A stretch of 63,465 bases of DNA, filler included, from Craspedostauros australis (lineage: Eukaryota): assembly GCA_030167865.1 (NCBI GenBank). It is 10 parts of 10 records of this genome, joined end to end, with 100 filler letters (N's around TTAATTAATTAA, not from the genome) between each part and the next. Parts side by side here need not be neighbours in the genome. Positions count along the whole stretch, not along the records: positions 49,609 to 53,574 come from JALAGF010002938.1; 9 more parts are not named here. One strand, written 5' to 3'. The position numbers were made by a program, and so were the translations under genes. Each line of letters opens with the position of its first letter. Within the stretch, counting starts at the first letter, position 1. Under the pieces are notes generated by a model, which did no database searches, was not told the origin of the DNA, and was given only the letters and a program-made list of their open reading frames with translations. Positions 7,450 through 59,183 of this stretch are shown in pieces.

Positions 7450-9378
7450 CTAATACTTCGGCCTCCGTTGACCTGCCGGAACCGTGACTTGGTTCCTCTT
7501 CGCGGCGGGGTGATCGGGGTCATCAGCCAGCCTCGACGACTCAAGCAAAGCCAAGATCTTCGCATCACTCCGGAAATCCCTCTGCGCATATTCCAACGCG
7601 GTATCACCAGCCCTATTTTGCACGTGCGGATCGATCTCCTCCAATGTCATCAGGTACTCGACCAACTCGAAGCAGTTGCCTTTCACCGCACAGTGAAGCA
7701 CCGTGTCCCCGTCCTTGTTCGGAAGATTCACATCCACCTTCACGTTGCTCGAATCAATCAACAGCTTCATCCTCTCCACCTGATCATCGTCATGGTCGCC
7801 ATCGTCGTCGTCATTATCGTCGCCGTCATTATCGTCGTCGTGAAACTCGTGGAGGTAGTTGCTGTCGTTGTTGGCTTTGCAAATGTAGTGTAGCGCGGTG
7901 TCACCATCGCTGTCCTGAAGTGTTGCATCCACTGAGTCACGCCCCACTAACTGCTGAAGGGTCGACAATCCACTCTCCCTACGTATGCATGCAAGGTGGA
8001 GGAGCGTGGTGCCATGGCGATTCTGAATGTTTGCGACTGGTTTGGCCTCTTCTATCAATCGTTGGAGGATGGCCGTGTCTCCCATATGATTGTTTGGATG
8101 AGAGAGATCGCTGAGGTTGGTGGTGGGGATGACTTGATGTTGGATGAAATCGAAGAGGCGGGTGATTATGGCGGTGTCATTGAACGTATCAAACAAGCCT
8201 CTGCCAAAGGCAATGTGCAAGGGTGTGCTACCGTCATGATTTTGGATGTACTCGCCAAGACTGTCATTGGCCTTGTGCGACTGGAGCAGGTACTCGATGA
8301 TATCATGCTCCTGATGTTCGCATGCAACATGGAGAGGGGTGTTTCCGCGGCTGTTTTGAATCTTGAGGATTTCATCGATACCCCTCTTGTTGTCGTTGTT
8401 GTTGTTGTTGCGGCAAACTTCCATCAACATCTCCAAGTTTGGTAGAATATCGAAGTGCCTGTGAGTGCAAAGAAGATGTATTGGCGTGTCGCCATCGTTG
8501 TTTTGGGTGCGGATATGGCTGCCCGTATGGAATTTGCCGCACTCGACCACATACGAAATCAAATCCCCACCATCATACCAGTGCGTGTTACACGCCAGGT
8601 GAAGAAGTGTATCGCCGTCGCCGTTGCGAATATTGAGATCGATGGCAGCGCCGGCATCATCCAATTCCAGCAGGTACCGCAGGCTGTTCATATCCATGCC
8701 CATGAACTCAAATGCTACATGCAAAGGAGTGTCGCCATTGTTGTTCTGCTTGTTGATGTTGGTATTCACATCAACTTGATGGCATTGCACCAAGTACTCC
8801 AGCACGTCGGTCCGTCCTCGTTTACAAGCGTGGTGGAGTAAATTGTTGCCATCGTTGTCTTCCATGATGAAGTGGATTCGATCAGAATCAATCAAATGCT
8901 CGACAAGATCTCTGTTTCCGCTCTTGCAAGCCAGATGGAGTAATGTCTGCCCTTTGTTGTTTCGGGCGTTGATATCCACATCGCTTTGATCAGACCGCAT
9001 GAAGTACTCAACGATGTCTTGGTGTCCAGCCTTGCATGCAGTGTGCATTGGCGTGTTGCCGTCATTGTCTCGAATGTTGACATCGACGTGGGCATAGTCC
9101 AATTCCATCAGGTACTCCACGGTGCTCCTGCGCCCGCTTTTGCAAGCTTCGTGGAGTGCTGTCCAACCTCTGCGATCTTGGAGATTGATATTCACCTTGA
9201 TTCGATCGGACTCCAGCAAGCACTTCATAATGGCTATGTTTCCGTGATAGGAGGCACAATTGAGTGGCGAATCATCGAATCCATCCGCGATACCACAGAA
9301 CGTGCCCTCGTCACATGATTCGACCAAGGCTTGCACCGTTGGCAATTCGTTCCTGTCGCATGCTTTGTACAATCGCAC
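7450..9378 (-). CDS. Ankyrin-repeat protein (about 14 diverged repeats); true start unresolved
   Basis: 642-aa ORF with recurring G(D/N)T(P/A/L)LHxAC motifs. It opens at GTG, with an in-frame stop shortly upstream. Confidence 0.85.
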   Translation of the reverse strand: MRLYKACDRNELPTVQALVESCDEGTFCGIADGFDDSPLNCASYHGNIAIMKCLLESDRIKVNINLQDRRGWTALHEACKSGRRSTVEYLMELDYAHVDVNIRDNDGNTPMHTACKAGHQDIVEYFMRSDQSDVDINARNNKGQTLLHLACKSGNRDLVEHLIDSDRIHFIMEDNDGNNLLHHACKRGRTDVLEYLVQCHQVDVNTNINKQNNNGDTPLHVAFEFMGMDMNSLRYLLELDDAGAAIDLNIRNGDGDTLLHLACNTHWYDGGDLISYVVECGKFHTGSHIRTQNNDGDTPIHLLCTHRHFDILPNLEMLMEVCRNNNNNDNKRGIDEILKIQNSRGNTPLHVACEHQEHDIIEYLLQSHKANDSLGEYIQNHDGSTPLHIAFGRGLFDTFNDTAIITRLFDFIQHQVIPTTNLSDLSHPNNHMGDTAILQRLIEEAKPVANIQNRHGTTLLHLACIRRESGLSTLQQLVGRDSVDATLQDSDGDTALHYICKANNDSNYLHEFHDDDNDGDDNDDDDGDHDDDQVERMKLLIDSSNVKVDVNLPNKDGDTVLHCAVKGNCFELVEYLMTLEEIDPHVQNRAGDTALEYAQRDFRSDAKILALLESSRLADDPDHPAAKRNQVTVPAGQRRPKY

Positions 9379-26927: not shown

Positions 26928-29900
26928 CTACACCTGCCCCGAGCTCATGTGTGATTCGATGCTGCTGTCGTTGGAGTAGTAGCTGGAGGACATAGAATGC
27001 GTGCTGGACATGGTGGACTTGCACACGGCGTCGACGGCGTTGGAGGTGGTGCATTCCTGCTGCGATTCGTCGATCGTGGTGAGGGATGGGTTGATGTTTG
27101 TGCCGGGCTTGTTTGTCTCTGTTGCGATATCGCTGGTGTGCAGATTCGGGATCGACGGCATGTACGTGTTGGCGGTGGTTGTCGGCGTGACGGGAGTTGT
27201 GGTGGTGGGAGTCCACGGCGTCATCGGCGGCGAGTTCATCGTCACGACCGGCTTGCCCGTTGCAAGTGGTGTGGAAGACGCACGAACGTGGCTGCTGCCC
27301 GATGTGTAGGCGGCTCCGCGACCGACCTGCGACGGAGATTCGGCTTGGCTGTTGTTGGCGTACTGCGAAAAGTTGGTCGAGAGTCCGTATCCTTGTCGAG
27401 CACCGCAGGTGCAGTATCCGCTGCCCTGTTGCAAGGTGGCGCCGCTGACGCGGACCTGGCCGATGGAAGAGCCGCGCTTGGATCTCTTCACGGCGACCTC
27501 CTTGCGGAAGTGGACGTAGTACAGCTTGGGCGCGAATATGAGCGTGATGGTGGTGATAGAGAAGAGGAAGAAGACGCTGCTCTGTCCCACGTACCGCACG
27601 GTCGTCGACTTGTCATCGACGAAGAGGATGACGGGGATGCTGATCATGAGAAGCTGGAACTGGGCGATGATCATGCTGAAGATCCACCGCGTCTCGGCGT
27701 ACTTGTTGTCAATATCTCTCGTCTTCCACACGAGACTCATGGTGAGGACGGGTGGAATGAGCATGACGAGGAAGATGGGCGTGAACCAGTAGACCGTTCC
27801 ATCGCCTTTGCAGTTGCCCGTCGTCTCGCCTGTGAGCTCGTCCACCACGGTCCTGCGCCAATCGAAGCCGCCCATGACCGTCCACGCGGCCATGGTGACG
27901 ATCACGACGAAGAGCAACGCGGACGCCGGGCCGATGACGGACAGCGCCGTCGTCTTCTTGCGCGAGAACTGCAGGACCTTTTGGATGCGCCACAGCTTGC
28001 ACCACAGCGCGCTGTAGATGAGCGTGAAGCCAATGACGATGAGCCAGGGACTGGAGGTGCAGGCCCGGCCCAGTTCATCGGGCGTCCACCCGTAGCTCTC
28101 GTCGAAGGAGTTGGAGATGATGGAACCGCACAGGCACATGGAACCGACGATGAGGACGTAGAGGAATTCCGGCTGCGCCGCCTTGAGGGCCTTCGTCTCG
28201 CGCTTCCAGAAGACCCACGCGATGAGAGACACATGCAGGATCATGGAGAGCGTGAACAAGGTGAATCCGTAGACACGCGCCGCTTGCTCCAAGTGATTCT
28301 CGTTCACGATCCGTCTGAGCAGAGACGGCGGTTCCAAGGCACCGTGGAAGTACACGAACGGTCGCACGGATTGCCACTGCCGATCATCGTTGTCGGTGTG
28401 ATTGCTGACGAGCAAGACATCGGTGATGCTCTTGACCAGGTTGGATGCGGCGATCTGCGACGACTCATCCTCATCGAATTCTTCATCGAGAGTGCCTGGC
28501 TGGATCATGCTGTCGCGGAAGAGGTTGAATATGGCGATGGGCAGGAAGGATCCGAAGCGCTCGCCCTCATCCCATCCCGACTGGTGGAACTTCACGTGTC
28601 CCGTGGCGCCGTCGAATTTCAGCCGCCGTATGTAGGCCGCCACATCGTTTGGAACGAGAGACGTGCTGTTGCTGTTGTCGTTGTTCGTTTGTTCCGCATT
28701 CATGGACTGATGCAAGGCCTTCGCCAACGAGATGGTCGCATCGTAGACGTAGGCAGAGTTGGAGGATGGGAAGGTCGTCTGGAAATAGTCTTCGCGCTGG
28801 ACGGAGTTGAGAATGGAATCATCCATGCTGAGATGGTGCGATGGCTCCCATTGCGATGCCCGCCACGCCTTGAGGAACGGATCGCGATCGGCATTGTAAA
28901 TGAAACCTTCGACGGGACAGATGATGGCGCTGCCCATGATCAGGCGCAAGATGCGGTCGTAACCCTGTTTCCTGCTGTCGCCGGCCACGAAATCCTGCTG
29001 CCGCTGCTTGATCTGCAGCAACGCTTCGGGACCGACGTCGCCAATGAGCGTCCAGACGTATCCATCCTCGGGCATCATGTTCTTCTGTTCCGCGATCTTG
29101 GCCATATAGGGCAGCTCGAGCCACACGTCCTCGACGATCCAGACGATCGTGAGGAATCCGCGATCGAAGATCTCCTGCAACGCCGACGCGATGGACCGAT
29201 CGTCGATGTTGGCAATGCTGGTGGCGTCATTATCCGCGGCATCGAAAGTGGAGGCCACCCTCTGCGTGAGCGCGGCCGCATCGAGATTGAAGCTGACGGA
29301 CATGGTCGAGTCTTGCGTCGTCTGCGCGTCGATCGATCTGACGAGGAGCATGGCCTCGTGCAGATTGATGCTGGTGGGATTCGTGGCATGCAGCAGGGCG
29401 ACGTACTTGGAACGATGAATGTACTGCAAATATTTGCTCGCCGCCGTGGCCAAGCTGAAGGCATCGATGCTGAGACGCGTCGTCATGTGCGTTGGGGCAT
29501 CTGTGGTTGGCTGTGTGGAGGGTTCGGACATGGCCTGCATCGTCATGGTGGCCGCGTTGGATGCCGTGGCCGCAAGGGAGCGTTGGTAGCCACCCCCGAT
29601 GACCAGCAAGGGGACGTTCCACGCTTCCGCCAAGGCGCTCCATTCCAGGAACGATCGCGGGCGCAGGAAGTTGGACAGGAGCAAGGCATCGAACGCGGCA
29701 TCCTGCGATGCGGTGGTGCTTGATTTGGCCAGGTCGTCGAGAGCATCCAACGCAATCCTCAATGCCGATTGCTCATCCGATCCATCGTTGGGCAGGAAGC
29801 GCACGTGCACCTTGACATTGAAGTCGATGTCGACGTCAATGTCGTGGGTCGCAGAGTCATTATGTTGCTGATCGGAGTTGGCACCCACAACGAAGCTGTC

Positions 29901-30596
29901 GCCTTGATGGAAATGACGCAGCGCCAGATCGATGGCTGCCGCATGCGAGATGCCCATGTCACACAGAACCTGGCCGTCAGCTTGGCCAGCCGAAGAAGAC
30001 GGCGATGGTTGGCCAATCTCGGTTGCGATGAGTGGCTTGGCGACTGTGCAAGGCAGCAGAGCAAGGATGTGCTTCGTCGTTGTGTTCGTCGATCCTGATG
30101 CGGCTCGTGGTGATGGACTCCACGGTTCCTCCGCATCGTTTGCCTCATCTGCATCATCTTCCGTCAGTTGTCTCTGACCTCGCCGTTCCTGCTGAGTTCG
30201 CTGTTGCGTTTGATCTAGCTTCGATCGTTGTCTATGTCTTTGTTGTTGCCTCCTTCTCTGTCCTGATTGCCGTTGCTGCAGATTGTCGATGGAGGGATTG
30301 CCGTGGTCCTGTGAGAACTGAGATGCTGCCTCCGCTGTTGCTGGTGATGCCTGTGCTTGTGTGAATGCCGAAGTCAGCAAAAGCAGAGCCATCATCATGG
30401 TCATCATCATGGTGATCGACCAAACACGAGCTGATCGAAATCCGACCGTTCTTGCCATCGTCTGTTTGGACATCTTCATCTCTTTCTGTGCTTCTGACTG
30501 TGCTTCTGACTGTATCTCTGTTTGTGTTTGTGTTTGTGTTTGTGTTTGTGTTTGTGTCATCATCATTGCCATCTCCCTTCCGTTTGTTGGTACCAT
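26928..30596 (-). CDS. Class C (GABA-B-like) GPCR with extracellular ligand-binding domain, single exon
   Basis: Signal-like hydrophobic stretch, AYVYDA and FDGATGHVKF in the ectodomain, then seven TM segments with AAQPEFL, KLWRI and IFAPK. The start may be a later ATG. Confidence 0.88.
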   Translation of the reverse strand: MVPTNGREMAMMMTQTQTQTQTQTQTEIQSEAQSEAQKEMKMSKQTMARTVGFRSARVWSITMMMTMMMALLLLTSAFTQAQASPATAEAASQFSQDHGNPSIDNLQQRQSGQRRRQQQRHRQRSKLDQTQQRTQQERRGQRQLTEDDADEANDAEEPWSPSPRAASGSTNTTTKHILALLPCTVAKPLIATEIGQPSPSSSAGQADGQVLCDMGISHAAAIDLALRHFHQGDSFVVGANSDQQHNDSATHDIDVDIDFNVKVHVRFLPNDGSDEQSALRIALDALDDLAKSSTTASQDAAFDALLLSNFLRPRSFLEWSALAEAWNVPLLVIGGGYQRSLAATASNAATMTMQAMSEPSTQPTTDAPTHMTTRLSIDAFSLATAASKYLQYIHRSKYVALLHATNPTSINLHEAMLLVRSIDAQTTQDSTMSVSFNLDAAALTQRVASTFDAADNDATSIANIDDRSIASALQEIFDRGFLTIVWIVEDVWLELPYMAKIAEQKNMMPEDGYVWTLIGDVGPEALLQIKQRQQDFVAGDSRKQGYDRILRLIMGSAIICPVEGFIYNADRDPFLKAWRASQWEPSHHLSMDDSILNSVQREDYFQTTFPSSNSAYVYDATISLAKALHQSMNAEQTNNDNSNSTSLVPNDVAAYIRRLKFDGATGHVKFHQSGWDEGERFGSFLPIAIFNLFRDSMIQPGTLDEEFDEDESSQIAASNLVKSITDVLLVSNHTDNDDRQWQSVRPFVYFHGALEPPSLLRRIVNENHLEQAARVYGFTLFTLSMILHVSLIAWVFWKRETKALKAAQPEFLYVLIVGSMCLCGSIISNSFDESYGWTPDELGRACTSSPWLIVIGFTLIYSALWCKLWRIQKVLQFSRKKTTALSVIGPASALLFVVIVTMAAWTVMGGFDWRRTVVDELTGETTGNCKGDGTVYWFTPIFLVMLIPPVLTMSLVWKTRDIDNKYAETRWIFSMIIAQFQLLMISIPVILFVDDKSTTVRYVGQSSVFFLFSITTITLIFAPKLYYVHFRKEVAVKRSKRGSSIGQVRVSGATLQQGSGYCTCGARQGYGLSTNFSQYANNSQAESPSQVGRGAAYTSGSSHVRASSTPLATGKPVVTMNSPPMTPWTPTTTTPVTPTTTANTYMPSIPNLHTSDIATETNKPGTNINPSLTTIDESQQECTTSNAVDAVCKSTMSSTHSMSSSYYSNDSSIESHMSSGQV

Positions 30597-43245: not shown

Positions 43246-44421
43246 GCAGTCTCGTCGTGCGTTTTCACTCGTGTGCCAACCACTTTTCCATCCTCATCTT
43301 TCGATGCAACGCACAATTGTCGCACACCCATACGTAGTCCCCTGCTCTTTGTGACGAATTCATCTCCTCCTTTTGCCTCCAAGATGGCGTACGCCACTTG
43401 ATGGTGATGGATGTACGCGCGAGCGACCTTGTCCATCTCCAAATTTTCCCAACACTGTTGGCAGGCCTTCCACAGTGCATCAGTTGTCAAAATTTGGCTT
43501 CCGTTGTTCTTACCTTGGGACGACGAGACATGTCTTGATAATGCAGGAAATATGCTTTCGTCTTTCACATTTGTGATGGGAGAATTTGGCGGTTGGATGC
43601 GATAATGCCATCCCCGTTGATCGAATTGCTTTGTAAGGAATGCCAGCAGCAATGTATCTCGGTGGGGACCGGCTCCATCCATTTGATAACGCACAACAAC
43701 TCTCTTTCCTGTTTCCGAACCAATCTTCATGCAGAGACTTTCGAGGTTGGGGATTTCATGGTTGCGGAAGAAACTCACAAGGTCGTATTTTGGCTTCTTC
43801 TTGTACTNCTTCTTGCTCCCAGTTATCTCCATGGCCTCGAAGTAGAATTGGCCCTTCACTCGCAAAATGTTCTCTGGGATGTGAGGATGGCGACGTTTCC
43901 CATTCTTGTCGATCACTTGTTTGTAAGTGCTCACAAGAGCCTCTTTCATGCGTCCCACATGTTCAAAGGTGACACAATAGGCCTTGCCCCCAAGTTCGAA
44001 TGAGTTGTTGATTGGTGCAAATGCAGTTGTTGCAATTACCATGGTCTTGCCTAGATGATTCTTATGGTGGGTGTGATGGACAATTGGGAGGACACCGTAC
44101 TCAAGAACTTCTTTGATGTTGTTGCGAGATACAATCACCCAAAACCACTTCTCGTCCATGTGGGCTATCACCACTTGGGTATTGTTGAATTGTTTGGCCG
44201 ATGCCCAGAATACACAAAACTCCTTTGCCCAAGTCACACGTTGTATCTTTGTTGCTTTTGTGAGGAGCGGCAAGATCTTGGTCTGCTTGTATTTGCTTCC
44301 TTTCAAAGACATGACATGACGCCGAATGGTCTCCGCACTGACAATTTGCGGGTTGCCACTGCCCGCAAGCTCATTGGCCACATCCTCCCATGAGAGGGTA
44401 CCATTGCATCGCTGTAATACC
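43246..44421 (-). mobile_element. Tc1/mariner-superfamily transposase fragment (DDD type)
   Basis: Motifs HMDEKWFW, YQMDGAGPH and QPPNSPITNVKD; the frame is open across the whole contig. Confidence 0.88.
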
Positions 44422-44521: not shown

Positions 44522-47085
44522 CGCGTGGCCGAGCATTCGGTGCAGGTTCACTGCGCTGATCTCCTTGGATGGATTCTTGACGATGGCTGTGCAAGCCTTG
44601 TCGTCATCTGTCGGCATGATGGGATGCATTTGCACTCCCGTGATGAATCCGTTGGATGTGGGGAAGACTCGATCGAACACGATTTTCGTTCCGGATCCGT
44701 TGATGATGTCCATCAGAATGCCGTTGTTACCAAGCTGGTAACCGTTGTACAGAGCCTTGTTCGTGGAGAAAAGGTTCACTGCCATTTTCGGTGTGTACTT
44801 CACATCATCGAGCCGGATGACGTGGCCAGTGTTGTCTCGCTGCTTGACCTTCAGGCGAATGGATCCCATTTTGGGAGAGTCCAGCTTCGTGCTGTCTCCC
44901 ACTTGGACGAAGGACTTGATGTGCCGCACGTTGAAGAGAGCGGCGTCCGAGTTGACGATGTGACACGAAGCTCCGCTATCGGCGAGCCAGGTGTCCTTGT
45001 TGACCTTGTCCTTGTATCTGGTGCTCAGCTCGTGGAGTTGCTCCACGGCTGCCGCAGCTATCTCGTCGTTGAAGCTGCCGTCATCGTCGTCTTTGTGGAC
45101 TCCATCTTTGTTGTATGGATTGCGGTGGTCCTCATCGTCCATCTCATCGGGTAGTTGCGCATAGTCCGATGGAATCGTATTGCTTCGATGAGATCCTGTG
45201 GCTGGATCGTATGGGTGGACGCGTGATCGCTCGCGTAAGAGCACGCGCATGCATCCTCCAAGGATGTAATGTAGATCCGTCTCTGGGATCGTTTCCGAGT
45301 TGTTCGCTTCCAGTATGCGGTTGATGATGATCGCATTGACGAGGATCTCTTCGATTGATTCGAAGTGCTCGGATAGGATGGATCCCATCATGTTCACCCA
45401 TATTGGCATGAGTGCTCCTCGTGTGGTTCCTGGGAACAGTCGCATTCCCGCTTCCATTACAGCGTCAAAGATGAGCTGCTTTTGGATTATCAATGCTGTT
45501 GCTGTTGCATTTGGGATGGTGCTGTGACGGAGGAGGTAATCGACGCTGTTGGGATACTCAATAGGTGGGAAGTCGATGTTCCCTGGGTAGACGACACGCT
45601 CGTTTGGATTGAAGCTGTCGTCTGGATGATTGCTGTCCTTGGATTCGTCGCTGTCATCCTCGTCGAAGATGCCCGATCTGTTGTTCCCCGCCGCTGGAGG
45701 AGGCGGCGCCGCGCCGCGGTTCGTTTCGCCTTGGCCTCGATTAATGAAGGTCCCCNTTCTCTCGTATCTCCCAGCTTGAGGAGGAGGCAACTCGTCGCGG
45801 TTCACCTCGTCGTCTTCATCTACGCCGTCCTCGTCGGCGTCGTCGTCGTCATCGCTCATGGCCTCTTCGATGTCGCTATCGTTGGCCTCGTTGTCCATCT
45901 CAGCTTCGTCGCCGTATGAACCGATCAGGTCGTGCGCGTTGAAGCAGCATTCGTAGCTCACTTCGCGTCTTGGATCCACCTCGTGGATGATTGGCTCCTC
46001 ACTGAGCCACTCCGGGACGATCTCATCGTCCTGTACTTCGTCGTCACTCCCGACGCATGCGAAGTTATCGAAGAAGGAGTCTTCGATGTAGTCGTTGGAC
46101 ACCAACATGCAGAGCGGCATGTCCTTTGCTGAGAGTACCATCTCGTGCCCGCTCTTGTCGTGTCCTTGTGTTGCTGTGTTGGCCTGCTCGTCGGCCTTCT
46201 TCTTCTTGTTGAACTTCTTCTTTCGGCACTCCGCCTCGCGGTGACCGAAGATGCCGCAGTAGTTGCACTTGCCCTTGAAGCCGCTTCCCTTGTTGCGCTT
46301 TCCGTTCATCTTGTTGTTGGTGTTGTTGTTTTTCTTGTTGTTCGATTTCTTGCGTTCTGGGCAATCGGCGGATCTATGGCCATACACGCCACAGTTGTGA
46401 CAAGTACCCTTGAAGTTACCGGTGCTTGTGAAACCGGTGTCGTTGCTCTTCGTGTTACTGTCTTGGAAGTTGTCGACGTACGCCTTGCCTCCTTGATGAG
46501 TGGCGTATGCTGTGCGGAGTACTCCTTTGATCGTGTTGATGGTGACCAGTTCCGGATTGAACGTGAGTTGATGTTGGAAGTTCACGACGTGAGTTCTGTA
46601 TTCGTTGCTCACCGTGCTGAGGATTTGCATGATCATTTCCTCGTCCGTGATCTCGTACTTGACATCGTGGAGACGCGATCGTAAACCTTCGAGTCGCGTG
46701 ATGTAGATGTCGGGGTCCNNNNNNNNNNNNNNNNNNNNNNNNNNNNNNNNNNNNNNNNNNNNNNNNNNNAATTGGCGCTTGAGTTTGATCTTCGTCACCG
46801 CGTCGGATGGTCGGAACTTCTCCGCGAGAACGTTCCACGCTGCGTGTGCGTCTCCTTCGGGGTAGTCGTCGGAGATGCATTGGTTGATGTACTGGATGGC
46901 CTGCTTACCTTTTCCTTTCTCTGCATCCATCATGAGGATCAGATCGCTGAAGCAGTCGCATCCCAGCTCGTAGATCTCCTCCATCGCTTCCTTGTCTTCA
47001 TCGGCAGCTGCCGCGATCTCGCTCACTGTTGGCACCTTGGTCTTGCCCAACATCACGTCTCTCGTCTTCTGTGCACGAGCGTATG
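44522..47085 (-). mobile_element. Ty1/Copia LTR retrotransposon gag-protease fragment
   Basis: Gag region (AWNVLAEKF, DPDIYITRLE), two CX2CX4HX4C zinc knuckles, aspartic protease WLADSGASCH, and pre-integrase LHRMLGH. Truncated at both ends, with an internal N gap. Confidence 0.92.
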
Positions 47086-49508: not shown

Positions 49509-49608
49509 NNNNNNNNNNNNNNNNNNNNNNNNNNNNNNNNNNNNNNNNNNNNTTAATTAATTAANNNNNNNNNNNNNNNNNNNNNNNNNNNNNNNNNNNN
49601 NNNNNNNN
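49509..49608. other. Artificial contig-joining spacer
   Basis: 44 N + TTAATTAATTAA + 44 N. Confidence 0.98.
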
Positions 49609-50445
49609 GTTGTTCTTGATGTCGATATCGATGTTAGCGTTGGCTGATTCGATGAGGCACTTGACGCAGTCAGAATGACCTTCGGAGCATGCGAGATGAA
49701 GGGGAGTGTCACCATCGTTGTTTTTGCAGTTGGCGTTGGCCTTCGCAGAGTCGACGAGGTACTTGACACACTCCAGATGACCATTGTAGCATGCTAGATG
49801 AAGAGGAGTGTCATCATTGTCGTTGATGCAGTTGGCGTTGACCTTCGCAGAGTCGACGAGGTACTTGACACATTCGAGATGACCATTGTGGCATGCCAGA
49901 TGAAGAGGAGTGTCATCATCTTCGTTTTCGCAGTTGGCATCGGCCTTCGCAGAGTCGACCAGGTACTTGGCACACTCGAGATGACCATATTCGCATGCCA
50001 GATGAAGAGGAGTGGAATCATCTTCGTCTTTGCAGTTGGCATCGGCCTTCGCAGAGTCGACGAGGTACTTGACACATTCGAGATGACCTTCGGAGCATGC
50101 CAGATGAAGAGGAGTGTTACCATCGTCGTCTTCCCAGTTGGCGTCGGCCTTCGCAGACTCGACGAGGTACTTGGCACACTCTAGATGGCCATTTTGGCAT
50201 GCCAGATGAAGAGGAGTGTCATCATTGTGGTTGATGCAGTTGGCATCGGCCTTCGCAGAGTCGACGAGGTACTTGACACACTCCAGATGGCCATTTTGGC
50301 ATGCCAGATGAAGAGGAGTGTCACCATCATCGTCTGCGACCTTGTTGACATCAACGTCTTCCTTCTGCTTCTTCCATTCTTTCAACACAGACACTTCACC
50401 TGCCTTGGCGGCATCAAGGAGTTGTTGGTTCGAAACATCCTGCAT
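49609..50445 (-). CDS. Ankyrin-repeat protein with seven near-identical 34-aa repeats; 3'-truncated
   Basis: N-cap LLDAAKAG followed by repeats of TPLHLACxxGHLECVKYLVDSAKADAN; 102-bp DNA period. Confidence 0.93.
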
Positions 50446-51520
50446 GTTGAGATGATGGTTGGTGGTGGATGATTGTTGAGCGTTTGTTAGCTGGATGATT
50501 GTTGGATGTTGTTTGATTGGTGATTGTTGGATGATTTTATGAAATGGTGCCTGCTTTATGAGATGAAATGGTCAAGATCCAGATTGTGTGTCCCAATTCC
50601 ACCAGTGCAACGACGAGCACGTCTACGAGCACGAATACGAGTATGTACGCGTAGTTGTATGATGCCGTGTGATGAGCAGCATGCCAACGCCTCTTGTTGG
50701 TGGATTCGAGCGTGGATTTCGATACCTGGAGTAGGACTCGCACAACGTTGTTGTCTCCTTGCCTCAGTCTTTCATTGTCTTTCATTGTCTTTCTCTCTCC
50801 TTCTGTCGCTTTCTTTCTGTGTTGGCCTCCATCCCTTGATCACCATCCCTTGATCCCCATCCCACGATCGTGTCCTGCTTCGGCACGAGTACGATCTATG
50901 GAGTGTTGTGGAGGAGGATCACCAGCGTGGAGTCTCAACATCCATCGTGTCCTGGTTTTGTTGGATCATGTGGGACACCAAGAAGTGGAGTTGGACGAGA
51001 ACACTCTCCACGACACGATCTTTGTGGTTGTGGGAACGAAACCAGGGATCTTGTGTGATGAGAACGGAGTATCTTCGACTCGTGGGATCGTTGAAACAGG
51101 ACAATGACCAGTGTCACCAATCGAAAGCATGAAGAAGGCGATCGATCAATCGTTGTGACACACATCCAGTTCGAAAGGCTTGTACAGTGTTCTCATTGGT
51201 TCATGTGGTCATGAGAGGAAGAGCCATGTGACGCAATTGACTGTGTCTCGTGATGCATCCTCATCCATGTGGATGTGGTTGTGGTTGTGCTCCGATCCAC
51301 ACAAATAGAATACCAACTAGAGTACTCTCTGTATTTGGTATTATATAGTGATTCTTTGTAGTTTACGGCTTTGTGTTCATGAAGCAGCGTAGCCTTTGAT
51401 ATTCGTCTGATGCCAAGTGCATAGATCGTTCGTGGCAACGTGAATTGCCTTTCGGTCATTGCGAAGCCACTGTGCCGAACGCTGCTGAGTCGAGTGCCAT
51501 TGTTCGGACCAGCTCACATT

Positions 51521-52673
51521 TCACTTCTGTAACTGTGCCATGAGGGTCGCCATCTGATCCTGCAGGACTTGCAGCTGTGAGGCAGCCGTCGCCTTGAGGC
51601 TGGGTCCGAGCTGCTGGATGCCATCAGTATCATTGAGCCTGACGACCTGACCATCCCCGATGTTGATCTCGAAGTTGGCGCCCTCGTAGTTTGTTGGTGA
51701 CGTTTGGTTGTTGTTGCCCTTGTGCTTTTTGGCGACGGTTGCAACCAGTGCGCCGACATCACGTGGTTCCACTGGGGATCCATTCTGTGAGCTGTTGTTG
51801 CAGCATCGGCCGCAGCAGCAGCAGAAAGAATGCGTGTGCATGTGCAATGTGGTGCAATGTGGTGCAAGTAGGAGTATGTCACATTGAAAGAAATGAAAAA
51901 GATAGAGCAACAGTGTGAACCGAAGAGTTTCACCAGATATGTTGTGAGAGACGATGCATGACAGCAGAGTAAATGAACTGACGATGAATGATAGCTGTCC
52001 ATACCAAAGATCAGGACCACCGCAGAATCATCAGCAACGCACTTGCAAGATCTCGATTGCAATGATGGTTCCACGCAGCACATACAAACACAACAGAGCA
52101 TATGGAAGACAGTACGTACTACAGCACTTCCCCGCGCCGCGCCGTGCGCAGGATGCTCCCTGGCGCAACGTTGCCATACCGACGCGTCGGTGCGGGCGTC
52201 GCAGCCACGGGCGGCAAGGGCTTGTTGTTGGCTGGCAACGGACGCTTGTGACCTGCCACCTGCACGCCGTCCTTCTGCAGGAGCAGCTGCAGCAAGTTGC
52301 ACTCGTACTTGGCGTTGAAATCCCGGATCTTCATGCCTTTCACAGCCCTCGACAGCTTGAGCATGTTGGCGATGTGCGTGCCCTGCTGCTCGTGCGTGGC
52401 GCGCAGCAGATCGGTGCGCAGCAGATCGATCTCCTTGCGCTTATGCTCTTCGAGATCCTCGATGAGCGACTGCACGTGATGCGGGTTGGCTCCGTCGATC
52501 GTGTCAGCCGCGTTCGTGGTGTTCTGCGATGTGTCCCACATGCCCAGAATGTTGCGCTTGGCCGCATCGCGCGGGCGGTTCTGAGACGCGGCGCTGGTGA
52601 CCGCGATGCTCGGCGACGAGAATTGATTGTGGAAGGCATGGCGGCCTCCAGCGCGGATGGGTGATCTGGACAT
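51521..52673 (-). CDS. CDCA8: Borealin-like chromosomal passenger complex subunit, 2 exons (52673-52120, 51791-51521)
   Basis: N-terminal helix ending MLKLSRAVKGMKIRDF. Splicing (TA|gtacgt...acag|C) gives RTARRGEVLYSQNGSPV, matching the borealin GE..S.NGSP signature. Confidence 0.7.
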
Positions 52674-53370
52674 GGTGGTGCTCGTCGTGTGGTTTCTCTT
52701 ACTGTTACTGGTGTGGTTGTTGCTGTTCGTGCTGCTGCTCTTGTTGACGTTGATGTGGTGGTCGATGACAATGATGCTCCTGTTCGTGCTGCTGATGATG
52801 TGTGGGGATGTGATGAAGGGATGTGTGCTTCGGAGGTCTGTGAATTGTGGCACTGTGCTATCATCACGCGAACGCAACATGATGGCATCACCACAAGCAA
52901 CAGAAATGAAGGTGAAGCAGAAGAAGACGCAAAGTCCGTGACCTGCCCAAATTTGAATTTGTTCGGGTGTTCGCAACGACCGTTACAATCGTATCTTAGT
53001 CCATCGATTCGAATACTGAAGAAGCCAAGTCGACTGGTTCGAATAGAGTCTCCATTCCAACACGCCAAACTCACGCCGAACTACCGCCACGACACAAACA
53101 AAGGAGAACAACAGGGACACCCGGCAAAAGGCAACGGAAACGTATTTCGACTAGTACGACTACTTTGACATCCAAAACCAATTTTGTCACTCAGACACAA
53201 GAAGGCCGCAATTGACATTCCACGATTGGCGAAGAACGAATCTCCTTTCGAAGAACTTAGTGAGAAACCCTGTTGGACCTATTTCGGAGAAACAAAAGGA
53301 GGCATTGATGCCGCTGGCCTAATTGATCGAGTCCCGTCNNNNNNNNNNNNNNNNNNTTTCTAATTCTAAA

Positions 53371-53517
53371 TAAATCGAATGACGGATAAATAAATCGAGT
53401 GACGGATAAATAAATCGAATGACGGATATTTAAATCGAATGACGGATAAATAAATCGAATGACGGATATTAAAATCGAGTGACGGATAAATAAATCGAAT
53501 GACGGATAAATAAGTCG
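53371..53517. repeat. 20-bp minisatellite TAAATCGA(A/G)TGACGGATA(AA/TT), 7 full units plus a partial
   Basis: Units start at 53371, 53391, 53411, 53431, 53451, 53471 and 53491. Confidence 0.95.
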
Positions 53518-57897: not shown

Positions 57898-58125
57898 ATG
57901 GCAACGACACCACGCGAAGACGCCACCGCCGCAGCAGATGGATCGAATGACAAGCTGATGAATGGACCATGCAAGAAGCAATACGCGATGCTGCAAGAGT
58001 GCGGACTGCGCCGCCTGGGTACGGAAGCAGCGAGTGCCACTCCAAAGCAGCAACTCCAAGCATGTCCCAGCGAGACGGATCTGCTCATCAGATGCATCCA
58101 CAAGTTCCCCATCTACTTCCAATAG
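57898..58125 (+). CDS. Twin CX9C (CHCH) small protein, 75 aa
   Basis: C-KKQYAMLQE-C and C-PSETDLLIR-C. Confidence 0.75.
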   Translation: MATTPREDATAAADGSNDKLMNGPCKKQYAMLQECGLRRLGTEAASATPKQQLQACPSETDLLIRCIHKFPIYFQ

Positions 58126-58487
58126 CTGTGAACGCCAAGACTCATTTTTTGGCGCGGATACTCCAACTCTGCTCAGTATCTTGGTCAGGTTTTGGCGCAA
58201 ACCAAGCAAGATACCGACTCGCGGAGCAGATCGTGCTCCACTCCGTGTGGACAGCGTGTGAATGGATTAGAGCACTAGAGCATGGTACTCTACTCTATTC
58301 TACTCTATTCCACTCAACGATCTTTTCCACAGGAAACGCCACAACAAGACAGCACAACCACAAGACAACACAACAAGACAACACAACCAAACAAACCAAC
58401 AGGCAAACAAGGAGCACCCGCAAAAACAGCCACAGCAATAACAACACCGTCCATTCTGCAAGTCCCAACGGCGACGAACCTTCCAAC

Positions 58488-59183
58488 ATGAACAGCGCAA
58501 ACCAATCGTCAGACAAGAATGCCAGCGTCGTGTCCTTCAATGTTGGCGGCAAGATCTTCACGGTCAGCACGGCGACTCTGACGAAGTTCAGCAAGAGCAC
58601 CCTCTTTCGCCTGGCCAACGACGACACGCGCGCAAGCCCGACATCGGTCCGCAGCTTCGTGGGCACCGCCCGCAACGAGAACATCCAGAACAACACGAGC
58701 CAAGACGCCCAACCGCCCATCTTCTTAGACGGCAACTCCACCCGATTCGAGTACGTGCTGGACTACATGCGAAACGACAAGGTGTTCCTGCCGCAAACCA
58801 TCCCGCGCGAGGCATTCCTGAACGACCTCGAGACGTACAACATCGTGGCGAACCACGCGAAGATCCGCGCCGCGTCCAACTTCGGCATCGCCCGCGCCGT
58901 GGAGTTCAAGAAGTGCATGCTGGAAGGGCACTTCATGTCATTCGCGCTGTGGTCTCGCACCGTCATGATCCAGCCCGACACAGTGCTGGGCCCCATCGGG
59001 ACGTTCGTCGTCGTCCTGAACAAGAACAATGAGTACCCCTTCAGCTTCGACAACATCAAGAGCTACAACCACAACAAGGCGCTCTTCGAGGATTGCTTGT
59101 CGGAGGTTGGTCTCAGTCTCGTCAAGTTCTCGCAGAACGCCTTGTCGCTGTCCTTCACGCTAATGATCGCCAAGGCGAATTGA
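58488..59183 (+). CDS. BTB/POZ (KCTD/T1-type) domain protein
   Basis: VSFNVGGKIFTVSTATL...PIFLDGNSTRFEYVLDYMR. Confidence 0.88.
   Translation: MNSANQSSDKNASVVSFNVGGKIFTVSTATLTKFSKSTLFRLANDDTRASPTSVRSFVGTARNENIQNNTSQDAQPPIFLDGNSTRFEYVLDYMRNDKVFLPQTIPREAFLNDLETYNIVANHAKIRAASNFGIARAVEFKKCMLEGHFMSFALWSRTVMIQPDTVLGPIGTFVVVLNKNNEYPFSFDNIKSYNHNKALFEDCLSEVGLSLVKFSQNALSLSFTLMIAKAN

Follow-up and report, generated by a model that had tools for sequence, protein, structure and literature searches.

The window analysed here is a 63,465-nucleotide stretch of DNA from the diatom Craspedostauros australis (GCA_030167865.1), in which contigs are strung together by artificial N/stop linkers; positions refer to the whole stretch. 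Its segment 49609–53574 is one contig of this genome (JALAGF010002938.1, here C2938; 3966 of 3966 positions identical). On the minus strand it carries the 5´ part (278 codons, 49609–50442) of what is very likely an intronless ANK-linker-BTB-BACK gene of a subfamily that we call S. The open reading frame (ORF) starts with a Met at 50442, passes through an N-terminal capping repeat common to the family (50326–50442, helices 5–14 and 17–26) and then seven ankyrin units of 34 residues each, and is cut off where the contig ends. The adjoining 49509–49608 is an artificial joint (44 N, 12-base stop linker, 44 N), and what lies to its left does not continue the gene. In order of translation, with the residues at unit positions 2/7/10/11, the units are unit 1 (50224–50325; D L Q N), unit 2 (50122–50223; D L Q N), unit 3 (50020–50121; N L S E), unit 4 (49918–50019; S L E Y), unit 5 (49816–49917; D L H N), unit 6 (49714–49815; D L Y N) and the diverged terminal unit 7 (49612–49713; D L S E). 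Seven Pfam Ank stretches match these units, and Tandem Repeats Finder reports a repeat of period 102 with 6.7 copies, 86% matches and a score of 927. Units 1–6 are 84–91% identical in DNA; unit 7, a terminal, cap-like unit, is just 63–71% identical. A single-sequence structural model predicts a regular ankyrin stack (predicted local distance difference test, pLDDT, 85.4 for the best of five models and 40–64 for the other four). A sequence-only reading of this contig had described a natural array akin to designed ankyrin repeat proteins (DARPins), and its description stands: seven 102-bp (34-codon) units on the minus strand at 49612–50325; the residues QN, QN, SE, EY, HN, YN and SE after LAC; variant blocks in common between units (TCC GAA in units 3 and 7, CIN(H/D)NDD at junctions 1/2 and 5/6); and a contig break inside the gene.

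The 3´ end is found elsewhere in the assembly. A genome search with 301 bp of the array gave at least 127 matches on at least 39 contigs (40 of 218 candidates scored). Contig C2050 (locus L003) overlaps the last 681 bp of C2938 (681/681 identical) and runs in frame via a linker into another domain, and five of five other close paralogues that reach beyond the array continue into the same kind of domain. By Pfam, the tail is BTB plus BACK in 5/5 full-length members, at or near the cut-off. A tail model from a 64-row alignment (pLDDT 85.6) has SPOP BTB-BACK as its best Foldseek matches (E = 3e-7, TM 0.79 on the target), and with a profile from 17 family tails alone SPOP ranks first, weakly (E = 0.004). 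This succession of a SPOP-like BTB domain and a BACK/3-box is that of SPOP/BPM-type Cul3 adaptors; no MATH domain is present in the five full-length members, where the ankyrin array stands instead. Judged by the overlap, the join of C2938 and C2050 very likely places this tail on the window gene. A caveat is that the same 681 bp (49609–50289), found in C2938 with seven units and in C2050 with the BTB-BACK tail, also occur in C6120 behind a different 5´ end with nine units. The ambiguous bases of C2050 fall at the same sites as in another paralogue, and near-identical tails are therefore partly collapsed in the assembly. C2938 and C6120 are unlikely to be simple alleles: upstream sharing ends at 52380 and the flanks differ by 5–12%.

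The sequence-only reading had also likened the array to fungal NOD-like receptor (NLR) sensors and left its effector domain unseen. That domain is BTB-BACK, and a NOD domain occurs in no member. NLR membership is rejected, since the five full-length members lack the central NACHT or NB-ARC domain and match no P-loop family. The sole NACHT match in the genome lies outside the listed family contigs, on contig C8 (G000:C8:18111–18605, minus strand, within a 1613-codon open frame); NB-ARC was not searched genome-wide.

The window gene, far from being a single-copy gene without repeat polymorphism, belongs to a multi-copy family in which the number of units varies. In the genome there are 119 exact matches to a 19-base tail motif and 120 to a 21-base motif of the N-cap, against 0 for the reversed controls; these counts may include both alleles at some loci and miss divergent members, including the window contig's own N-cap. 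They point to a young, expanded family of about 120 copies. We fetched 79 regions by best DNA match or motif position, which makes proportions rough. Of the 74 genes that were parsed, the tail is in frame in 26 and a stop falls ahead of BTB or inside it in 36; 4 are interrupted by gaps and 8 run off contig ends. The architecture is N-cap, n ankyrin units, linker and SPOP-type BTB-BACK, with 2–17 units per gene and about 60 in C3870 (L065/L104, G000:C3870:19479–26735, open frame of 2469 codons). At L034 (G000:C5470) an N gap is flanked on either side by a copy of a BTB segment, which probably reflects an error of assembly. The diatom origin proposed for the window gene is borne out, the genome encoding at 100% a protein labelled Craspedostauros australis. 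The genome also holds an older layer of divergent ANK-BTB genes, with repeats less alike (49–61% versus 78% across residues 1–22). Transcription of one young member is documented by a 64-residue transcriptome-labelled peptide identical to L059 at 64/64 residues, and a second expressed fragment is 89–92% identical to members of subfamily K.

Family copies occur on more than 100 contigs, with ordinary host genes and transposons around them. Some stand in tandem 3.6–8 kb apart, and homology among the flanks of family copies is nested, of the type typical for segmental duplication. In the window, the upstream part of the duplicated segment covers 50443–52380 and is 88–96% identical in six S-subfamily paralogues. 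A 287-codon minus-strand ORF without Pfam match (52119–52982) spans the boundary at 52380, and the paralogous segments therefore hold only its 3´ part; the window locus may be the source of the duplicated segment or an odd insertion site. Further along the contig, a 20-bp tandem repeat of 7.6 copies (53367–53517) adjoins a gap. The neighbours of family copies include Copia and piggyBac-type sequences, retrotransposon or DNA-transposon ORFs making up 3 of the 38 ORFs in the flanks. No transposon with fixed ends and the gene as its cargo came to light: flank sharing is nested and variable, and no transposase ORF common to the copies was seen, one set of ORFs having been read by eye. Insertion from a giant virus or endosymbiont was rejected as well, the neighbours (38 flanking ORFs) being host genes and transposons, the tail nesting among diatom MATH-BTBs and the best ankyrin matches reaching no more than 28–47% identity. 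A related ORF without Pfam match accompanies some tandem copies (L096:3955–5295, L105:3–1010).

Variation within the units is concentrated at a few codons. Of 521 units, 94 were dropped (terminal, irregularly spaced or containing N) and 427 were kept, 403 of them distinct in DNA. Entropy is highest at unit positions 10, 2 and 7 (3.78, 3.68 and 3.51 bits, with about 19 amino acids at each), followed by 34 and 11. Position 7 is an invariant Leu within the window yet among the three most variable positions across the family. Of the seven bases that differ most among units, six are the first two bases of codons 2, 7 and 10; these are near saturation, while the third bases of the same codons remain mostly fixed. 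By counting, the proportions of nonsynonymous and synonymous differences (pN and pS) are 0.70 and 0.31 at these positions versus 0.13 and 0.22 in the framework; in nearest-neighbour unit pairs at most 3 nt apart they are 0.118 and 0.014 (28 pairs). Maximum likelihood gives a nonsynonymous-to-synonymous rate ratio (ω) of 12.4 at positions 2/7/10 (2ΔL, twice the log-likelihood difference, 78.7; 150 of 403 units), or 8.6 under a second model. When units of subfamily H and the remaining units are taken separately (110 of 180 and 110 of 223), positions 2/7/10 rank top in both, with ω of 7.8 and 5.2, and the DARPin positions chosen a priori have ω of 4.1 and 2.1. Positions 11, 31, 33 and 34 jointly give 1.47 (2ΔL 3.0), which is not significant. 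In the structural core of the units ω is 0.48, and in intact BTB tails it is 0.45 (0.36–0.55, 24 genes), indicating purifying selection. DARPin repeats in solved structures differ at 2, 10, 11, 31, 33 and 34 and mostly have Leu at position 7. The sequence-only claim that the variable positions are the target-contacting ones of DARPins is supported, the variable positions matching this set with position 7 in addition, and substitutions are not evenly spread with ω below 1 at the variable codons. At the level of sequence, these comparisons demonstrate that between three and six codons of the predicted concave binding face undergo diversifying substitution.

Units are also exchanged among paralogues. 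Arrays of subfamily S are built as patchworks from a common set of unit types, arranged differently from gene to gene, and two paralogues have units 1–3 exactly in common and diverge thereafter. The nearest relative of a unit lies in another gene for 303 of the 427 units, in its own gene for 91, and is tied for 33, although some cross-gene matches are allele pairs. There are 330 different combinations at positions 2/7/10/11. Four-gamete tests fail for 1068 of 1374 site pairs, which can also reflect recurrent mutation, and linkage falls as distance grows (rho −0.09, p 0.0075). Subfamilies S and K each draw on a unit pool of their own; H and Q exchange units, 33/181 and 41/125 nearest units crossing over. 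The idea of a repeat-shuffling binding protein with mosaic units is upheld by the cross-gene nearest units, the four-gamete failures and the variation in unit number. As to misassembly, which the sequence-only reading had named as a danger, assembly error may put units in a new order but does not generate 403 distinct ones. Individual junctions may be misassembled. A diversity-generating retroelement was rejected, as all six substitution classes are seen and codons 2, 7 and 10 do not begin predominantly with A; the only reverse transcriptase sequences near family copies are Copia-type fragments, beside two loci.

Subfamily H has largely lost its tail: 33 genes lack it in frame, and C3870 is the sole intact member seen. 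Counted by hand, at least six distinct stops or frameshifts lie in the 35 codons preceding BTB, and more inside it. H tails are under relaxed selection (ratio of nonsynonymous to synonymous singletons, N/S, 0.78 versus 0.41). Of 90 array stretches (68 kb, frame-blind), 2 contain a stop; in L053 (3103–3471), an insertion of about 370 bp with a gap divides one array. The contrast of open arrays and broken tails, moderate evidence for retained arrays as read from these sequences, rests mainly on frameshifts because few stops are expected. Conserved stop read-through was rejected, since the lesions differ among genes and include frameshifts, and the downstream tails are decaying. Decoy proteins and donor pseudogenes both fit subfamily H.

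The origin of the tail lies within the diatoms. A search of 1.84 billion representatives gave 85 matches, 33 of which were scanned; the closest relatives are mostly ANK-BTBs, from C. australis wherever a species is labelled, and the next-closest are MATH-BTB-BACK(-SAP) proteins. Among the matches scanned, none is an ANK-BTB relative labelled with the name of another species. In a 40-row tree, rooted at midpoint and leaving out 24 more distant rows of the alignment, the young family forms one clade (100/99), including one unlabelled tail-only row. An enclosing ANK-BTB clade (100/99, one row without a Pfam ankyrin match) is nested among MATH-BTBs, adjoining C. australis MATH-BTB proteins. The simplest reading of this topology is that, in this lineage, ankyrin repeats took the place of MATH on a MATH-BTB adaptor. 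Searches with the ankyrin part only returned generic repeats, the best matches being merely 28–47% identical.

Other parts of the window hold genes of related or different kinds. An ankyrin protein of 592 residues (7450–9228, minus strand), whose repeats are heterogeneous and which has no BTB match, bears a faint resemblance to the family unit, and ankyrin genes similar to it adjoin family members in L045 and L057. A protein with a KCTD-type BTB_2 domain, another BTB class, is encoded at 57969–59183 (plus strand). On separate small contigs lie a Copia-type gag-pol fragment (44522–47085, minus strand) and an ORF that is transposase-like by eye, without Pfam match (43246–44421, minus strand). 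A class C G protein-coupled receptor (ANF_receptor + 7tm_3) is found at 26928–30596 on the minus strand.

In the mechanism that we propose, segmental duplication would multiply the genes, and unequal crossover and gene conversion among near-identical 102-bp frameworks would re-deal the variable codons. The ankyrin face of each protein would bind its own, distinct intracellular target, and the BTB-BACK tail would dimerise and recruit diatom Cul3, leading to ubiquitylation and degradation of the target. The truncated subfamily could serve as ankyrin-only binders and/or as a store from which units are donated. According to PMC3616122, BTB-BACK proteins of the SPOP type form dimers and bind Cul3 via a phi-x-E loop and the 3-box. 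A Cul3 gene is present in the genome (G000:C2183; 70–82% identical to diatom proteins, many labelled cullin 3), and recruitment of Cul3 by the tail is fairly probable. The moving targets would be foreign proteins (virus, parasite or bacterial), accounting for the diversifying selection; we infer this further step from the selection pattern and the nematode precedent for diversifying MATH-BTB adaptors (PMC4334554). A diversified Cullin3-type substrate-adaptor repertoire directed at foreign proteins has, in our judgement, about an even chance of being the correct description. One tentative extension, which we consider rather unlikely, is a combinatorial, DARPin-library-like intracellular repertoire of more than 100 genes on shared unit pools, with truncated copies as donors or decoys, ongoing (perhaps mitotic) recombination and Cul3-routed degradation of foreign proteins, amounting to a natural "targeted degrader" immunity.

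Several observations weigh against an adaptor repertoire of this kind. The phi-x-E motif, which we take to lie on SPOP residues M-E-E given the profile alignment, reads I-Q-H (15/16 rows) or I-H-H, with the hydrophobic residue kept and the Glu absent. In KLHL3, loss of the Glu abolishes Cul3 binding (PMC3616122). Many diatom MATH-BTBs also lack this Glu, and its loss therefore weakens the case for Cul3 binding rather than excluding it. A complex prediction of the tail with the N-terminal part of Cul3 from another diatom (an 82% identical stand-in), made without alignments, scored 0.01 and speaks neither for nor against binding. Tree-based ω is inflated by recombination, and the window's S subfamily alone is borderline (ω 2.4–2.5, 2ΔL 3.4–3.9, 35 units). 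Rare framework variants lack a purifying signal (N/S 1.2–1.7 versus neutral, a count biased upward), and ω is 0.97 both in the non-core framework and in the H-subfamily framework; selection on individual copies appears weak. The 36 of 74 parsed genes that stop before or within BTB would lack a complete tail, and with about 1.5–2.5 stops expected in the arrays, their open frames are weak evidence. Finally, 0/9 full-length young members are found in the protein collection, and the transcripts are just fragments.

Among the alternatives, the one that fares best keeps the same machine and directs it at fast-evolving proteins of the diatom itself that act in sex or in self/non-self discrimination (mate recognition, incompatibility, meiotic-drive antidotes); plant self-incompatibility, where multiple F-box genes mediate non-self recognition, offers an analogy. 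Expression limited to certain stages would agree with the small number of young members among proteins derived from transcripts. A BTB/POZ family of Seminavis robusta is described as strongly expressed in sexual stages, and families of that sort include genes with high piN/piS, the ratio of nonsynonymous to synonymous diversity (PMC7335047). Those genes may be unrelated to the present family, the tail matches scanned name no ANK-BTB relative from other species, and copies dispersed over more than 100 contigs do not form one locus; we regard a sexual role as unlikely. A largely non-adaptive expansion, in which a duplication-prone segment spreads, conversion homogenises and reshuffles the units, the surface tolerates change and most copies decay, is quite unlikely. 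It would suit the truncation of about half of the sampled genes, the neutral look of rare framework variants and the nested duplications with Copia and piggyBac-type neighbours, and a non-adaptive contribution has been suggested for chlamydial F-box/BTB expansions (PMC4209131). However, relaxed constraint predicts ω near 1, versus the 5–12 found. Nor would it keep third bases mostly unchanged while first and second bases near saturation at the same three codons in independent subfamilies. Intact tails, moreover, remain at ω 0.45.

Two further alternatives appear very unlikely. The tail may have lost Cul3 binding and may serve only to oligomerise the arrays into high-avidity binders that sequester their targets, so that tail loss is cheap; this would agree with the absent Glu, the long insertions in BTB, the repeated loss of tails with arrays retained in 33 genes and the known oligomerisation of SPOP-type BTB-BACK (PMC3616122), whereas the conserved hydrophobic phi residue and first BACK hairpin (3-box), and deviation at the same motif in diatom MATH-BTBs, speak against it. 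Intragenomic defence, with adaptors that recognise and degrade proteins of the diatom's own transposons or other selfish elements, is equally improbable: an arms race would yield the same ω pattern, and transposon ORFs lie beside several copies (3/38 flanking ORFs) and in the window, but proximity to transposons is expected of any duplicated region.

A diversified adaptor repertoire would be of interest beyond this genome. No gene family of diatoms is, to our knowledge, defined as one for pathogen recognition, and the present one is a concrete candidate recognition repertoire in a species used for cell-biology work. We found no description of it in the literature, supplements and subscription papers lying outside what was covered, and the main text of 10.1101/2023.03.06.531300 and PMC12159174 contains neither "ankyrin" nor "BTB". 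The family joins two strategies that have been described apart: repeat shuffling with selected surface codons, known from fungal NLRs and brown-algal ROCOs, and diversified cullin adaptors, known from nematodes. As an experiment of nature, it further shows where in the ankyrin unit diversification is tolerated, pointing to position 7 besides the usual DARPin set.

Compared with SPOP/BPM-type MATH-BTB-BACK adaptors, the tail is homologous, but the substrate domain is a variable-length ankyrin array reshuffled among paralogues, the phi-x-E Glu is missing, and many members lack the tail. Positively selected expansions of nematode MATH-BTBs were reportedly described by Thomas in 2006. The likeness to these nematode expansions, as presented in PMC4334554, lies in a diversifying N-terminal substrate domain, a conserved cullin side and birth-and-death evolution. 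Other pairings of ANK and BTB (ABTB1, NPR1 and arthropod ANK-TDPOZ-like clusters, as leads only) and the large chlamydial BTB-LRR/F-box expansions, where a repeat binder is paired with BTB (PMC4209131), differ in that the diatom family is of independent origin, from diatom MATH-BTB in the 40-row tree. Engineered DARPin libraries have a randomised concave surface (PMC8229355) and resemble the family in their fixed framework and in variation at 2, 10, 11, 31, 33 and 34, whereas the natural arrays have a 34-residue unit, the additional hypervariable position 7 and as many as about 60 units. Fungal NLRs whose ANK, TPR or WD repeats are highly conserved are described as having high internal repeat identity, variation in repeat number, exchange within and between genes and positive selection on the concave ankyrin face (PMC4986451). 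Conserved repeats with number variation and inter-gene exchange are found here too (between paralogues, in one genome), as is concave-face positive selection, subject to the recombination caveat and borderline in the window's subfamily alone. Unlike fungal NLRs, the family has no NACHT/NB-ARC or death effector, an N-terminal array, an adaptor output and about 120 genes with shared pools. The ROCO-LRR and NB-ARC-TPR candidate receptors of Ectocarpus, another stramenopile, share shuffled, diversifying repeats and rapid birth and death; according to PMC3341825 they have one exon per repeat and a GTPase/NB-ARC output, in contrast to the intronless arrays and BTB-BACK output seen here. By the features tested, the family resembles fungal NLR sensors and brown-algal receptors on its input side and MATH-BTB adaptors on its output side, and is a member of neither.
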